Part shown: piece by piece, positions 3,577 through 41,914 of the stretch | Layout of the letters: every line of letters starts with the position of its first letter | Numbering within the stretch: position 1 is the stretch's first letter | NCBI RefSeq assembly: GCF_044324785.1 | Contig: NZ_CP172127.1 | Length of the DNA stretch: 64,000 nt | Strand: one strand, 5' to 3' | Source of the DNA: Escherichia coli | Lineage (GTDB): Bacteria > Pseudomonadota > Gammaproteobacteria > Enterobacterales > Enterobacteriaceae | Made by a program: the position numbers and the translations under genes | Notes under the pieces: model-generated | Seen by the model: only the letters and a program-made list of their open reading frames with translations | Database searches by the model: none | What the model was told of the DNA's origin: nothing

Positions 3577-6380
<2,804 letters not shown>

Positions 6381-35376: not shown

Positions 35377-36116
35377 GTAACTGGCCTTATCCCCGCATCG
35401 TCGCCCATCGTGGCGGCGGTAAACTGGCCCCGGAAAACACCCTGGCGGCAATCGACGTGGGGGCAAAATACGGTCATAAGATGATCGAATTTGACGCGAA
35501 GTTATCGAAAGATGGCGAGATCTTCCTGCTCCATGACGACAATCTCGAACGTACCAGCAACGGCTGGGGCGTCGCGGGTGAACTGAACTGGCAGGATTTA
35601 CTACGCGTGGATGCGGGCAGTTGGTACAGCAAAGCGTTTAAAGGTGAGCCGCTGCCGTTGCTTTCGCAGGTGGCGGAACGCTGTCGCGAACACGGGATGA
35701 TGGCGAATATCGAAATCAAACCCACCACTGGCACCGGGCCATTAACGGGCAAAACGGTGGCGCTGGCGGCACGCGAACTGTGGGCCGATATGACGCCGCC
35801 GCTGCTGTCATCGTTTGAGATTGATGCTTTAGAAGCTGCACAACAGGCGGCACCGGAACTGCCGCGCGGTTTATTGCTTGATGAGTGGCGCGACGACTGG
35901 CGAGAACTGACCGCGCGGCTGGGCTGCGTCTCTATTCATCTCAATCATAAGTTGCTCGATAAAGCGCGAGTGATGCAGTTGAAAGACGCCGGATTACGGA
36001 TTCTGGTTTATACCGTCAATAAACCCCAGCGCGCGGCAGAGTTGCTGCGCTGGGGCGTGGATTGCATCTGTACCGATGCGATTGACGTGATTGGTCCGAA
36101 CTTTACGGCCCAATAG
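35373..36116 (+). CDS. ugpQ: Glycerophosphodiester phosphodiesterase UgpQ
   Basis: 247 aa with the GDPD-family N-terminus ([18 protein letters not shown]). Confidence 0.93.
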
Positions 36117-36543
36117 TTTTCAACGGAATATCAGGCTGCGGCGTGCTGGGCTGATTCAGCATGTCGCCGTTTCTCCTCTCCGGCAGCATATGCTGCTGAT
36201 TCAACGAACTATCCGGATTACGGTTGCTGTTTAACATCCCGCCGTTGGTGTTGGGCAGCATTTGCTGCCGGGCGGGATTTCGCTCCCCCGGCTGTGACTG
36301 CAACACCCGCTGAGAATTATTGTTTATCTGGTTTTCTAAATGCTGTTGTTGCAACTGAGTTTGCGTTTTCAGTTGCTGATTCAGCATCCCTTTTTGCTGG
36401 ATTTGCTGCGTTTGCATTTGAGTCTGCATCCGCTGCTGGCTGGGGATCTGATATCCCGGCTGGTTGGGGTTGTTCAGAGTATTAATGGGCTGTGCAAAGC
36501 CGACAAACGGCAGGAGTGCCGTAAGAATCAGAAGTCGTTTCAT
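36103..36543 (-). CDS. yhhA: Gln-rich secreted protein YhhA (DUF2756)
   Basis: 146 aa with signal peptide and Q-rich low-complexity repeats; converges on ugpQ with a 14-bp overlap. Confidence 0.8.
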
Positions 36544-36662: not shown

Positions 36663-38408
36663 ATGATAAAACCGACGTTTTTACGCCGGGTGGCCATTGC
36701 TGCTCTGTTCACAGGAAGTTGTTTTAGTACGGTAGCCGCGCCACCTGCGCCGTCTCCTGTTTCTTACGGCGTGGAGGAAGATGTCTTTCATCCGGTACGC
36801 GCGAAACAGGGGATGGTGGCGTCTGTAGATGCTACTGCCACTCAGGTGGGGGTGGATATCCTCAAGGAGGGCGGGAATGCCGTTGATGCCGCCGTGGCGG
36901 TGGGCTACGCGCTGGCGGTAACGCATCCGCAGGCGGGGAATCTGGGCGGCGGTGGTTTTATGTTAATCCGCTCGAAAAATGGCAACACCACGGCGATTGA
37001 TTTCCGCGAAATGGCACCCGCCAAAGCGACCCGGGATATGTTCCTTGATGATCAGGGCAACCCGGACAGCAAAAAATCACTCACTTCGCATCTGGCCTCC
37101 GGCACGCCCGGTACGGTCGCTGGTTTCTCGCTGGCGTTGGATAAATACGGCACTATGCCGTTGAACAAAGTGGTGCAGCCAGCGTTTAAACTGGCACGCG
37201 ATGGTTTTATCGTTAACGACGCGCTGGCTGACGATCTCAAAACCTACGGGAGCGAAGTGCTGCCGAATCACGAAAATAGCAAAGCTATCTTCTGGAAAGA
37301 GGGCGAGCCGCTGAAAAAGGGCGACAAGCTGGTGCAGGCGAACCTGGCAAAGAGCCTGGAGATGATTGCCGAAAACGGCCCGGACGAATTCTACAAAGGC
37401 ACGATAGCGGAACAGATTGCCCAGGAGATGCAGAAAAACGGTGGCTTGATCACGAAAGAAGATTTAGCGGCGTATAAAGCGGTCGAACGTACACCGATTA
37501 GCGGCGATTATCGCGGGTATCAGGTTTACTCGATGCCACCGCCATCTTCCGGCGGGATCCATATCGTACAAATCCTCAATATTCTGGAAAACTTCGATAT
37601 GAAGAAATACGGCTTTGGCAGCGCCGACGCGATGCAAATCATGGCAGAAGCTGAGAAATACGCCTACGCCGACCGCTCGGAATATCTTGGCGACCCGGAT
37701 TTTGTCAAAGTCCCGTGGCAGGCGCTGACCAATAAAGCCTATGCCAAATCTATTGCCGATCAAATCGATATCAATAAAGCGAAGCCGTCCAGTGAGATTC
37801 GCCCTGGCAAGCTTGCGCCTTATGAGAGTAATCAAACTACCCATTACTCTGTAGTGGATAAAGACGGTAACGCGGTGGCGGTGACCTATACGCTGAATAC
37901 CACCTTCGGTACGGGCATTGTCGCGGGCGAGAGCGGTATTTTGCTCAATAACCAGATGGATGATTTCTCCGCCAAACCGGGCGTGCCGAACGTTTACGGG
38001 CTGGTGGGCGGTGATGCCAACGCCGTCGGGCCGAACAAACGTCCGCTGTCATCGATGTCACCAACCATTGTTGTGAAAGACGGTAAAACCTGGCTGGTGA
38101 CTGGTAGCCCTGGCGGTAGCCGGATTATCACCACCGTGCTGCAAATGGTAGTGAACAGCATCGATTATGGCATGAATGTCGCCGAAGCGACCAATGCACC
38201 GCGTTTCCACCATCAGTGGTTGCCGGACGAGCTGCGCGTCGAGAAAGGATTTAGCCCGGATACGCTCAAACTGCTGGAAGCAAAAGGTCAGAAAGTGGCG
38301 CTGAAAGAGGCGATGGGCAGCACACAAAGCATTATGGTTGGGCCGGACGGCGAGTTGTACGGCGCATCCGATCCGCGCTCGGTGGATGATTTAACGGCGG
38401 GGTATTAA
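36663..38408 (+). CDS. ggt: Gamma-glutamyltranspeptidase
   Basis: Start at MIKPTFLRRVAIAALFTGS gives 580 aa; catalytic threonine context (QTTHYSV) present. Confidence 0.95.
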   Translation: MIKPTFLRRVAIAALFTGSCFSTVAAPPAPSPVSYGVEEDVFHPVRAKQGMVASVDATATQVGVDILKEGGNAVDAAVAVGYALAVTHPQAGNLGGGGFMLIRSKNGNTTAIDFREMAPAKATRDMFLDDQGNPDSKKSLTSHLASGTPGTVAGFSLALDKYGTMPLNKVVQPAFKLARDGFIVNDALADDLKTYGSEVLPNHENSKAIFWKEGEPLKKGDKLVQANLAKSLEMIAENGPDEFYKGTIAEQIAQEMQKNGGLITKEDLAAYKAVERTPISGDYRGYQVYSMPPPSSGGIHIVQILNILENFDMKKYGFGSADAMQIMAEAEKYAYADRSEYLGDPDFVKVPWQALTNKAYAKSIADQIDINKAKPSSEIRPGKLAPYESNQTTHYSVVDKDGNAVAVTYTLNTTFGTGIVAGESGILLNNQMDDFSAKPGVPNVYGLVGGDANAVGPNKRPLSSMSPTIVVKDGKTWLVTGSPGGSRIITTVLQMVVNSIDYGMNVAEATNAPRFHHQWLPDELRVEKGFSPDTLKLLEAKGQKVALKEAMGSTQSIMVGPDGELYGASDPRSVDDLTAGY

Positions 38409-38445
38409 GGTTAGCGGCTCTCTTCGTGGGAAGAGGGCCGTATTG

Positions 38446-38730
38446 TCAGGGCAAGCCGAAGGTAGCCTTTTTTATTTCATAATCCTGTAGATATTCTTCC
38501 AGCGGCTTTGCCGTTCCAAGGGAATGAATTTCACCACTGTCTTTATCAATAATAAAAGGTGCGTTACCGGCTAAACGCGCGGCCTCATCTCCAGATTCAA
38601 GAAATTCTTGTGATTCGAAACAGAAATACCAGCCCTGGCTAAAACGTCCATGCAGAGTGATGACGACAGGGAGATCTGCATCATCAAGGTAATGGTTCGC
38701 TTTCGCGAATGCGTCGTGATAAGTAATCAT
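38446..38730 (-). CDS. yrhB: Small stress protein YrhB
   Basis: 94-aa ORF (MITYHDAFAKANHYLDDADLPVV) in the expected position. Confidence 0.75.
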   Translation of the reverse strand: MITYHDAFAKANHYLDDADLPVVITLHGRFSQGWYFCFESQEFLESGDEAARLAGNAPFIIDKDSGEIHSLGTAKPLEEYLQDYEIKKATFGLP

Positions 38731-39188
38731 AATTATAATAAATATTATTGTTGATCGTTATATTATTATTCTTGCGTTATACTTTGAGAAAAGACGCGTT
38801 CATCTTCGTCAAAGATATTATAAAATGCTGGTTTTGAAAAAAGTTCATCGGATAATATACAGTCACGAAATAAGTATCTGCTAATATTTTGTGATTTCTT
38901 TTTCAGAACGTCGAACGGGATTTTCTTATTTAAGATATCAGAATCTTATGATTCGGGTGAAATTCTAACTAAATCAACATGTCACTAAAATCATCATAGC
39001 CATTAGCTATTTCGGCTAAAATGGCTAAAATAGAGATTACATGTCTTCGGTCCATCTCACTTAAGGAGTGTAGTTCCGTTGTAAGTTTTTCCATAGCTTG
39101 CATTGCTAAGTTTCGAACAAGGAATTTTCTGCTGGTAATCTCTAAAAAGATGGCATGGTTTACAATGATTTTTGTTACCTTTTGATTA

Positions 39189-39683
39189 TTATGAACAACT
39201 GTCCATGATTTCGTTTAAGAATGAAGAGAAATCACTAAACGAACTGAATATATTTTCGGTGCCAATATTATCTCTAATTTCAAAAAAGTTACTTTTAATG
39301 TCATAAGTAAATATTGAAATGCTATCATCACCGATCACTAACCGTTCTTGTAGATCAGGGTTTATGAAATCATCATTATTTCTATAAAATTCATTTACGG
39401 CAAAAAGGTTTTTAACTGAAGGTTCTGGAATCGAGAGGCTAAATAATCGTAATCCATTAGCTTCGAATCCATCCATTGCTCTTAAAAAAGTAAGATAATC
39501 AGGTTGATTCTTAAAAAGAATACTAACTTCATTACATAACTTCTCCAGGCAATTAGTTGAATTAGAATTAAATTCTATTTGGATTATACTTTCAATAAAT
39601 GATTCCTTGAGCGGTGCTTCAAATGGATGGTCTAAATCATTCATCATTTTTTTTAATTTATTTATTTGGGTTTTAGTCATCAT
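39189..39683 (-). CDS. yrhA: YrhA, uninterrupted; candidate immunity protein for the upstream Hcp-nuclease
   Basis: 164-aa ORF, low GC, immediately downstream of yhhZ with an ATGA stop/start overlap. In K-12 I recall this gene as a pseudogene disrupted by IS1; no IS1 sequence is present here. Confidence 0.6.
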   Translation of the reverse strand: MMTKTQINKLKKMMNDLDHPFEAPLKESFIESIIQIEFNSNSTNCLEKLCNEVSILFKNQPDYLTFLRAMDGFEANGLRLFSLSIPEPSVKNLFAVNEFYRNNDDFINPDLQERLVIGDDSISIFTYDIKSNFFEIRDNIGTENIFSSFSDFSSFLNEIMDSCS

Positions 39684-40858
39684 TTTGTGGGTTCCATAAT
39701 ATTTTTCATGAGAGGATAAATTGAGCCAGATGGAATGGCCCAGGGAGTGATTTTGCTTTCACCTACTAATATTCCCTTAGCTATTCGTGATTGCATGTTA
39801 GTAAAAACTTTATGATATGGTTCGTTTTCGATTAATACTAAATTTTCGAAATCATTAGTACCACCATCATCTAGAGATAGTTTATGGTGAACATTATAAT
39901 TTAGAGGAACATTGCCCTTTCTCATTCTTAAAAGGTCTTCGGCGTTGAATCTTCCAGATGCTTCGGAGGTTTTTGCAAGTTTGATAAGAAAATTTTTTCT
40001 TACAGTTTTATTAAACTCCTTTCGTAAGTTAGCTAAGTCTTTTGAAGGTCTCTTAATGTATATTATTTCTATTATGTCTATACCATCAAGAAGTTTTTGT
40101 TGACCTCTAAGTTTGCCTAAGTAACTATTTATTTCTGTATATGTATCAACATTAGAACGCTTTGTTAAAAGAATAGATGCTGTTGCTATCGCTATGCCCG
40201 CTGTTTTTTCATTTAGTATTTGATCATAGCCTTTGATTGCATCTCCACCCAGTTTTTCCGCAGTATCTCTGAATCCTTCAATGTTCCCATTGTATACGCC
40301 ACCAGCAGCAAGTAGCCTGCCAACAGCTTCGCTGTTTAACGTTTTTAAACCATTATTTGTTTTGTTTTTTGAATTTGGTAAAAACAAGCGGTTATAATTT
40401 TCAGGGAGTGCCAAATAGCTGAACTCGGTGTTAGTGATAAGATGTTGGCAGAGGATAAATTCATAACTAACAGTTATTGTTTCTGTATCCAGCTGGTTTT
40501 CAATGATCTGGTGATGAATAGCCGATAAAAAAGCGCCTCTTAGTTGTATATAATAATACTTTTCCCATCTACCAAATCTATTTATTCGATAGAAGTCAAA
40601 TCCCATAAATAATTGTTCATTATTGTTAATGGAATTAATAAATAATGGAGTGCTTTTATCAATTAATTTACAAAATGTTATACCATGGAACTGTGAACCA
40701 AGCCCCGTATTAGAAATACTATTTAAGAGTGAGAATGTAAATATTTCATTCTCATGCCCGCTCTGCCAGCGATTACCTATAGATTCAGTAGTCCCACAAC
40801 CTGCGGAGATGCTTCCTTGTTGTTCTCCCGTTACTGTCAGATAAATAATATTACTCAT
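39680..40858 (-). CDS. yhhZ: Hcp (T6SS tube protein) fused to a C-terminal HNH / colicin-DNase-like nuclease domain
   Basis: 392 aa. The N-terminal 120 aa is Hcp-like; the C-terminus carries an HNH pattern, NVHHKLSLDDGGTNDFENLVLIENEPYH (His-His codons at 39884..39889 on the minus strand). Low-GC gene. Confidence 0.75.
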   Translation of the reverse strand: MSNIIYLTVTGEQQGSISAGCGTTESIGNRWQSGHENEIFTFSLLNSISNTGLGSQFHGITFCKLIDKSTPLFINSINNNEQLFMGFDFYRINRFGRWEKYYYIQLRGAFLSAIHHQIIENQLDTETITVSYEFILCQHLITNTEFSYLALPENYNRLFLPNSKNKTNNGLKTLNSEAVGRLLAAGGVYNGNIEGFRDTAEKLGGDAIKGYDQILNEKTAGIAIATASILLTKRSNVDTYTEINSYLGKLRGQQKLLDGIDIIEIIYIKRPSKDLANLRKEFNKTVRKNFLIKLAKTSEASGRFNAEDLLRMRKGNVPLNYNVHHKLSLDDGGTNDFENLVLIENEPYHKVFTNMQSRIAKGILVGESKITPWAIPSGSIYPLMKNIMEPTK

Positions 40859-41093
40859 CCCTGAAAAGTCCTTTTATAGCATGCTATTTTATCAATGGCA
40901 CTATTATGCTTGTTAATTGTTATTTATTTACTCCAGGAAATTGTAGGCGTATATATTAAAAAATAAAATATTACACTTTAGGAAGTAATTATGAGGTAAA
41001 TCTCATATATTTATTGGGAAAATAAATACATTAAAGGAAGGTATGCCGATTTTGAATGACACCCTTTTTCCATCTCAGAAAAAGGGCACTATC

Positions 41094-41582
41094 TTACTTC
41101 ACCCGCGCCATATAATACGCATCGACATATTCACCATTACGTAATGCGTACTTTTTGCCAGTCCCTTCAATCTCAAAGCCGAATTTTTTATAGACCTTAA
41201 TTGCTGGCGCGTTATCGACGAACACCGTTAGTTCAATACGATCTACCCGCAACCAGTTATCGCACATTTCAATCATCTCTCGCATCAGGGCACTGGCGAC
41301 ACCGCGATTCTTCCAGCGGGCGTCGACACAGATACCAAAATCGGCAACATGACTGCGGCGCGGGCGTTGTTGCACGTCAATGGTGAGATGGCCTACGACG
41401 ATTCCATCAATACAGGCGACTAACTGCTTGATGCCGGGACGATCGGCGAGTCGCTCCTGCCACATATGATCGGAAGGATGAGGCACCTGTAGTGTGTTGC
41501 AATACACCTCCGGCTGGGCGTGAATCTGCCTGATGGCCTCGTAATCCCGTGTTTCTGCGTGGCGTATTACTATCTCACTCAT
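41094..41582 (-). CDS. yhhY: GNAT-family N-acetyltransferase YhhY
   Basis: Start at MSEIVIRHAETRDYEAI gives 162 aa; acetyl-CoA-binding region around RWKNRGVASALMREM. Confidence 0.85.
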   Translation of the reverse strand: MSEIVIRHAETRDYEAIRQIHAQPEVYCNTLQVPHPSDHMWQERLADRPGIKQLVACIDGIVVGHLTIDVQQRPRRSHVADFGICVDARWKNRGVASALMREMIEMCDNWLRVDRIELTVFVDNAPAIKVYKKFGFEIEGTGKKYALRNGEYVDAYYMARVK

Positions 41583-41914
41583 TCCTTTGTCCTCTTTGGG
41601 GTAAATGTCCCTTTCAACATCATTGACTTTCACATACGAGTCAAATGCATTTTTTTGCAAAAAGTGTTGGACAAGTGCGAATGAGAATGATTATTATTGT
41701 CTCGCGATCAGGAAGACCCTCGCGGAGAACCTGAAAGCACGACATTGCTCACATTGCTTCCAGTATTACTTAGCCAGCCGGGTGCTGGCTTTTTTTTTGA
41801 TCTTTCGTTCTCAATTTATCCACGGGAGTGCTTGTGTTCGTTATGCGCACTCCAGTAGGAACCACGTCCGCTTTGCGCTAAGGTGTAAATAACCACCTTA
41901 AAAAGGACGAAATC

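Follow-up and report, generated by a model that had tools for sequence, protein, structure and literature searches.

The DNA between yrhA and yrhB in Escherichia coli raises a simple question: is this AT-rich gap blank sequence, an empty insertion site, or the remains of something that once had a function? We examined it in a window of 64,000 nt (the whole stretch of contig NZ_CP172127.1 that was analysed), which contains the E. coli ugp-ggt-yrhB-yrhA-yhhZ-yhhY region, its plus strand corresponding to the MG1655 minus strand around ggt. The genes follow each other in the order ugpC, ugpQ, yhhA, ggt and then, on the minus strand, yrhB, the spacer (38731..39188), yrhA, yhhZ and yhhY, with RyhB and yhhX next. 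A first-pass annotation had described the spacer as 458 bp of AT-rich DNA containing neither IS1 nor any ORF of 60 aa or more, and this description holds. Its GC content is 31.0% as compared with 52.7% for the whole window, the longest ORFs touching it encode 54 aa (plus strand) and 44 aa (minus strand), and comparison of IS1E with the whole window by blastn yielded only chance matches of at most 20 nt, IS1 being absent. The implied picture of blank DNA has to be abandoned, since the spacer holds an allele of the annotated gene yrhD (b4612) and a pseudogene of a family that we call geneX (Table 1).

Table 1. Positions of the features of the spacer and its surroundings in the window
Feature	Position	Strand	Description	Basis
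yrhB	38446..38730	-	94 aa, intact; orphan gene of immunity type	Pfam Imm35
Leader	38731..38765	-	35 nt, from the fossil stop codon to the yrhB ATG	
geneX fossil (pseudogene)	38766..38929	-	85-aa geneX family, probable orphan immunity gene; stop TAA at 38766..38768	
yrhD segment	38930..39188	-	259 bp, found only in E. coli, between yrhA and the geneX fossil	
yrhD allele	38969..39094	-	41 codons + TAG (44 when counted from the ATG further upstream, at 39103); 51 aa in K-12	
Perfect 9-bp tandem duplication	39014..39031		GGCTAAAAT x2; adds Ile-Leu-Ala to the yrhD frame	TRF and alignment
yrhA	39189..39683	-	Intact, 164 aa, predicted immunity partner of the HNH toxin	
Second IS1 target, empty here	39238..39246		CAGTTCGTT; in strain 200088 (L014), 768-bp IS1 with 9-bp duplication	
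Promoter-like site TAGAGA-18-TATATT	39247..39276	-	Within the yrhA 3' end, oriented towards yrhD	Consensus scan
K-12 IS1E target, empty here	39294..39302		9-bp GACATTAAA on the gene strand, single copy in the window; yrhA codons 128-130	
yhhZ	39680..40858	-	392 aa, Hcp-HNH nuclease fusion of the Hcp-ET1 toxin type	
AT-rich islet	38744..41095		2.35 kb, 32% GC, variably present within E. coli, with the spacer as its tail	

The low GC content is a property of the whole islet and is not peculiar to the spacer. Three classes of locus occur in E. coli: those with the full islet, those in which ggt and yrhB are followed by 98 bp and yhhY, and those in which ggt and yhhY are directly adjacent. Strain FXCREC180 exemplifies the second class, with about 98 bp in place of the islet segment and a junction common to 233 genomes, and strain WP3-S18-ESBL-08 lacks the entire interval 38409..41091. 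Islet-less genomes that keep yrhB have this 98-bp filler between yrhB and yhhY (L005, 6345..6442). The spacer is present in 3804 of the 5426 complete genomes surveyed, with 94-96% identity between the window and K-12 and a match of at least 99% in a single genome, N3. This strain is the nearest complete genome to the window (99.9% identity over 1301 bp, 100% over the spacer). A search for the species range of the spacer with exact 21-mers in genome contigs returned a single chance match, in a Flavihumibacter MAG. Elsewhere in the region, the small RNA RyhB is encoded between yhhY and yhhX (41733..41797, plus strand; Rfam RF00057, 83 bits), and yhhA (36103..36543, minus strand), whose 146-aa ORF is intact here, is annotated as frameshifted in the near-identical N3 (L001, 205..644).

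The first-pass annotation had considered yrhA to be an uninterrupted 164-codon frame, noted that it is disrupted by IS1 in K-12, and placed the corresponding unoccupied site at the spacer. The gene is indeed intact in the window, and published work locates IS1E inside yrhA of MG1655 (PMC12428005), where this 768-bp element splits the gene into pieces of 390 and 105 bp that, once joined, give the 495 bp found here. The truncated K-12 product has 138 aa, 130 from YrhA and 8 encoded by IS1. Alignment with K-12, which had been suggested as a check, maps the insertion to codons 128-130: IS1E is flanked in MG1655 by duplicated GACATTAAA, and the K-12 flanks join at window positions 39291..39302. The gene and the target sequence are the same in both strains and the site is empty here, as supposed, but it lies inside yrhA, 106 bp beyond the edge of the spacer, and not in the interval to which it had been assigned. 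The proposed value of the locus as a strain marker is substantiated. The IS1E junction, found in 1020 of 5426 complete genomes (all K-12 laboratory strains among the matches listed), marks the K-12 lineage; an N3-like lineage is marked by the 9-bp duplication, for which N3 is the sole other carrier among the same 5426 genomes.

Adjacent to yrhA, the spacer consists of a segment that had no counterpart outside E. coli in DNA or protein comparisons, including at the locus of Citrobacter youngae and at the YrhA loci of other genera. MG1655 carries there, between yrhA and yrhB, the annotated gene yrhD (b4612, 51 aa), and the window holds an allele at the same position. A known functional element in the spacer had been named in advance as a contrary finding; yrhD, an annotated gene that had been overlooked, answers to the letter of this condition, but it is one without known function. 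The first 38 codons of the window allele correspond to b4612 with 2 substitutions and the 3-codon duplication. Codon 39 of K-12 (TAT) corresponds to TAG here, which cuts the product to 41 aa, and the full 51-codon frame is lost. In N3, RefSeq annotates at this position a 126-bp CDS whose product is called hypothetical, and other genomes have there either yrhD or a pseudogene of it; for this haplotype and related ones, the PGAP label is hypothetical protein or pseudogene. We determined the state of the gene in an evenly spaced sample of spacer-bearing genomes, which gave 59 full-length records. The frame is intact in 44 of them, all representing one nearly invariant haplotype with 93.5-94.1% identity to the window. 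It is disrupted in the other 15: eight records, N3 included, have the TAG allele (96.9-100% identity), and seven have a dead B2-type version (90.6-90.8% identity) that combines an ATG>ATA change with an internal TAA and bears the PGAP pseudogene label. The yrhD-segment frame ends in a TAA that abuts the start of the geneX fossil, as the toxin stop codons do in intact geneX loci. The idea that the segment is the 3' end of a displaced toxin was nonetheless rejected, profile comparisons giving E values above 0.7 and DNA comparisons z scores below 1.6.

The remainder of the spacer contains a 58-codon stop-free frame that begins just past the yrhD stop codon and ends 35 nt short of the yrhB ATG. 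This frame is homologous to geneX, an intact 85-aa gene that in C. youngae comes after those for Hcp-HNH and YrhA, at a distance of 20 nt. Comparison of the fossil with C. youngae geneX gave a Smith-Waterman z of 16 and a tblastx E value of 5e-11, with 45% identity over 53 aa. Over positions 2-54 of its 86, an HMM of the geneX family recognised the fossil in the window (35.5 bits, E 1e-11), and in each of the four E. coli haplotypes examined it matched one frame only, with 33-41 bits and E values from 1e-11 to 1e-13. Alignment with hhalign assigned a probability of 97.4% and 46% identity, and the match was also found with a DNA profile (nhmmer). The lesions, read from the alignment with geneX of Citrobacter and Budvicia, are severe. 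At the start-codon position (38929..38927), ATA is present in the window and in K-12, and ATG in B2-type genomes. The A-run that follows the start has a 1-nt deletion common to all E. coli haplotypes aligned, a further nonsense codon is present in K-12, and in all E. coli the last ~30 codons are missing, including the most conserved motif of the family, R-x-R-M-N...E-Y-x-G-L-E-R. Loss of the start, frameshift and absence of the C-terminus imply that this is a pseudogene and not a functional member of the geneX family. Intact geneX of Citrobacter has pN/pS values of 0.22-0.33, and the E. coli fossil has values of 0.29-0.85, on few changes; the comparison of the window with K-12 (0.29) involves very few of them and, alone, is no proof of relaxed constraint.

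The homologue was reached only by going through the YrhA homologues of other genera and reading their neighbours. Translations of the spacer, searched against immunity families as had been proposed, matched nothing in Pfam, NCBIfam or PADLOC, and scans of YrhD and of all long stop-free frames of the spacer with the same three collections gave nothing above noise. A conceptual 108-aa fusion of the two frames retrieved only E. coli self-hits in word-indexed and in exhaustive HMMER searches. The exhaustive search probably missed geneX because a match of ~40 bits, by our estimate, fails an E threshold of 0.001 among 1.84 billion proteins. The spacer was also examined as a possible decayed duplicate of yrhA, yrhB or yhhZ, and this was rejected (Smith-Waterman z below 1, blastn at noise level).

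The geneX family comprises proteins of 85-88 aa, with 33 members at E <=0.001 from Citrobacter species and Budvicia, all of them annotated as hypothetical. We found no Pfam domain in the family and no PDB relative by sequence, and an AlphaFold model based on 18 sequences was unusable (pLDDT 47). The gene starts 1 nt after the stop codon of a toxin, which in Budvicia is an Rhs C-terminal fragment and in C. freundii and C. rodentium an Hcp carrying a C-terminal extension; in loci L021, L023 and L024, the toxin ends at 4999 and the co-oriented geneX starts at 5001. The toxin C-terminal domains of the Hcp and Rhs carriers are 65% identical over 153 aa (E 3e-64), and in the Budvicia Rhs copy the domain begins directly after the DPLGL motif. 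When a small gene accompanies a toxin tip from one delivery scaffold to another, this is accepted as the mark of a cognate immunity gene (PMC3482391). The position of geneX directly after the same toxin domain on both Hcp and Rhs suggests that it is most likely an immunity gene. The surmise that the spacer, like others that follow toxin/immunity pairs, might hold a decayed orphan immunity gene is thereby supported, as far as gene context can indicate such a function. The toxin domain itself, of about 150 aa, has the form QNYRAIAAGVEDLS...GWRWSSHVHPDG...ISPEWRP (L024, 3746..4999; L023, 3791..4999; L021, 3977..4999) and matched no Pfam family and no PDB relative by sequence; geneX always comes next after it. 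This domain and its partner 85-aa protein, neither of them in Pfam and both found with Hcp and Rhs carriers, are open to direct test.

Upstream of the spacer, yhhZ and yrhA form the HNH/yrhA module. YhhZ matches TIGR03344 (2.5e-34) and PF05638, its HNH score being under the Pfam threshold, and YrhA matches family NF038335 with E 1e-36 over profile positions 2-149 of 150. At the yhhY...ggt site of Citrobacter there is likewise an Hcp toxin with a YrhA homologue. Across Citrobacter, Leclercia, Dryocola and Klebsiella, YrhA homologues follow HNH toxins borne on Hcp or on DUF8093 carriers, and this association with two carriers fits a role of YrhA as the HNH immunity protein. Residues 172-383 of YhhZ are 62-68% identical to the DUF8093 toxins, indicating that the HNH toxin tip also occurs on a non-Hcp carrier. 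In Leclercia, Dryocola and Klebsiella (L026, L028 and L029), the genes preceding the YrhA homologues encode DUF8093 proteins of 379-381 aa, and the match lies in their C-terminal 210 residues. Hcp-ET1 and ETI1 of E. coli O104:H4 have been described as an HNH DNase on Hcp with its immunity protein (Ma et al. 2017, via PMC6730261 and bioRxiv 10.1101/2024.03.05.583533). In the window, yhhZ likewise encodes an Hcp with an HNH-type C-terminal extension and is directly followed by a gene of 164 aa; the locus is arranged alike, with 95.8% identity, in O104:H4, from which Hcp-ET1 comes. YhhZ/YrhA may be equated with Hcp-ET1/ETI1 on the basis of synteny. The present finding differs in concerning the DNA downstream of the pair, which is not discussed in PMC6730261 or bioRxiv 10.1101/2024.03.05.583533.

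On the other side of the fossil, YrhB is a clear member of the Imm35 family (PF15567, E 1.2e-22, 80.2 bits against a gathering cut-off of 27.5), and its pN/pS between E. coli haplotypes is 0.07-0.37. It is a second orphan immunity-type gene beside the fossil, and still intact. YrhB is 70% identical to the Imm35 protein that follows geneX in C. freundii, where the order is Hcp-toxin, geneX, Imm35, a 78-aa ORF and ggt. The same order and this identity make the fossil-yrhB pair of E. coli the counterpart of the intact geneX-Imm35 pair. The yrhB gene ends in CCC TGA (38446..38451, minus strand), a context reported for yrhB as prone to +1 ribosomal frameshifting (PMC2790909).

Divergence along the locus was most cleanly compared between K-12 and the B2-type haplotype (phylogroup B2, ATCC 25922). 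The spacer differs by 7.3% between them, and the synonymous divergence is 5.4% for yrhA and 4.8% for yrhB. As judged from this pair, the spacer appears today to be under no detectable constraint. Between the window and K-12, divergence within 38100..40000 is ~1% for yhhZ and yrhA but 5-6% for yrhB and the ggt 3' end (yrhB pS 0.18), a step that points to a recombination boundary in or near the spacer. The gradient from 1% to 5% across the spacer in this pair may therefore reflect, in part, such a boundary instead of neutrality.

We consider it quite probable that the spacer is debris left by the turnover of toxin cassettes at a yhhY-ggt site common to Escherichia and Citrobacter. On the minus strand, one reads successively the yhhZ toxin, its putative immunity gene yrhA, the 259-bp yrhD segment with its unstable small ORF, the geneX fossil and the intact yrhB. 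The HNH/yrhA module would have arrived upstream of an older geneX-Imm35 pair; geneX, deprived of a resident toxin to guard against, would have decayed, and yrhB would have stayed intact.

Might the spacer instead be the locus of a genuine small-protein gene, yrhD, of which the window carries a shortened (41 aa) or null allele? The annotation of b4612 in MG1655, the PGAP gene name in about three quarters of the sampled spacer-bearing genomes and the identical ORF in all sampled carriers of the K-12-type haplotype would agree with this, as would an RpoD SELEX site upstream of yrhD that overlaps H-NS binding and has the same TAGAGA-18-TATATT hexamers as our consensus scan detected (PMC3946193). 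Moreover, the K-12 frame is open for 92 codons, which we estimate to be unusual at 31% GC. Against such a gene, the frame is intact in one haplotype only, the two other haplotype families having a nonsense codon or both start loss and an internal stop; the frames of the three haplotypes are separated by 0-1 synonymous and 4-9 non-synonymous differences (pN/pS above 2), no homologue outside E. coli was found among 1.84 billion representative proteins and no family matched, no Shine-Dalgarno sequence is obvious, and the searched literature contained no functional report on yrhD/b4612. The 68 YrhD copies with zero variation reported in a pan-genome survey (PMC3575317) reflect ascertainment, the ORF being counted only where it is intact, in a single haplotype. 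We regard this explanation of the spacer as unlikely, and yrhD is probably not a conserved protein-coding gene. Yet the RpoD site and the 92-codon open frame leave room for a lineage-specific function that yrhD may have in K-12. A different history for the same segment would make yrhD a young ORF born de novo in the debris of the displaced cassette, fixed in the K-12-type haplotype and driven there by the sigma-70 site that yrhA carries at its 3' end, the broken versions then representing the ancestral non-coding state; this scenario seems very doubtful. A regulatory reading, in which the sequence would be maintained as promoter or leader of yrhB, as an H-NS nucleation site for silencing of the islet, or as a small RNA, draws on several observations. 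A sigma-S SELEX peak at 3582734, in the K-12 spacer between yrhD and yrhB (PMC5493296), falls, according to our own conversion of coordinates, ~48 nt upstream of yrhB, and promoter-like hexamers occur near yrhB at 38790..38762. The RpoD site with its H-NS overlap lies upstream of yrhD, and a published report places promoter islands with H-NS binding in yhhZ and yrhA. In islet-less genomes, the sequence departs only 13 nt upstream of the yrhB ATG, which implies that yrhB expression in islet strains needs spacer sequence or read-through. However, the SELEX signal is weak (intensity 4.3), the consensus scan found no excess of promoter-like sites (5, with 4.9 expected in shuffled sequence), and the spacer diverges no less than the synonymous sites of the genes on either side. 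As for an RNA element, this was rejected, given an RNA fold z-score of -1.5 and no credible Rfam match in 38300..39800, where only a eukaryotic snoRNA model appeared with 25.7 bits (gathering cut-off 45). Maintenance of the spacer for a regulatory role is thus improbable, and whatever role remains to it is probably limited to yrhB promoter activity and H-NS binding.

The first-pass annotation also saw in the spacer a possible insertion hotspot, and one could go as far as to regard it as a preferred landing pad of IS1, chiefly significant for that reason. At least five independent IS1 events have indeed hit the islet or its immediate vicinity, in K-12, 200088, SF10, AR_0369 and Ec-U3, two of them with breakpoints in the spacer (38801 in SF10 and 38855 in AR_0369) and that of Ec-U3 with breakpoints at 38458 and 40426. 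In addition, strain 980-2 carries ISKpn26 within yhhZ, and IS1 directly follows the yrhA homologue at the Klebsiella locus. But both simple insertions (K-12 and 200088) are in yrhA, outside the spacer, and the two spacer breakpoints are the ends of IS1-linked deletions. The counts are un-normalised for an element that matches at a median of 10 places per genome in the 5426 genomes, and any preference of IS1 for AT-rich DNA would extend to the whole 2.4-kb islet. The events give anecdotal support to a hotspot in the islet as a whole, but a landing pad is an extremely improbable account of the spacer.

If the spacer is the debris of cassette turnover, as we favour, the locus resembles the polyimmunity arrays described by Zhang et al. 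(2012; PMC3482391). Here too, unrelated immunity-type genes (yrhA, the geneX fossil and yrhB/Imm35) are co-oriented after a toxin, gene content varies by strain and by species, and one toxin C-terminal domain moves between Hcp and Rhs together with an adjacent small gene. The locus differs from such arrays in being short, with two intact genes and one pseudogene, in having a 259-bp segment that parts yrhA from the fossil, and in that the geneX family stands outside the Pfam Imm families. The spacer would then be an ordinary relic of polymorphic-toxin cassette turnover, which leaves the understanding of these systems unchanged. Its interest is more local. The annotation of E. coli can be amended, the gap between yrhA and yrhB containing a doubtful small gene, yrhD, and a previously unannotated pseudogene. 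The apparent invariance of yrhD in pan-genome surveys would be accounted for by the counting of intact copies from a single haplotype. The yhhY-ggt interval would constitute a site at which both Escherichia and Citrobacter exchange cassettes of Hcp-borne toxins, yrhB and the fossil being immunity genes left behind. At or beside the position that yrhB occupies in E. coli, Citrobacter genomes have ORFs of 78-87 aa next to ggt (L017, 4807..5070; L016, 2581..2826; L024, 5600..5836), which show weak, sub-threshold Pfam hits of winged-helix-like type.
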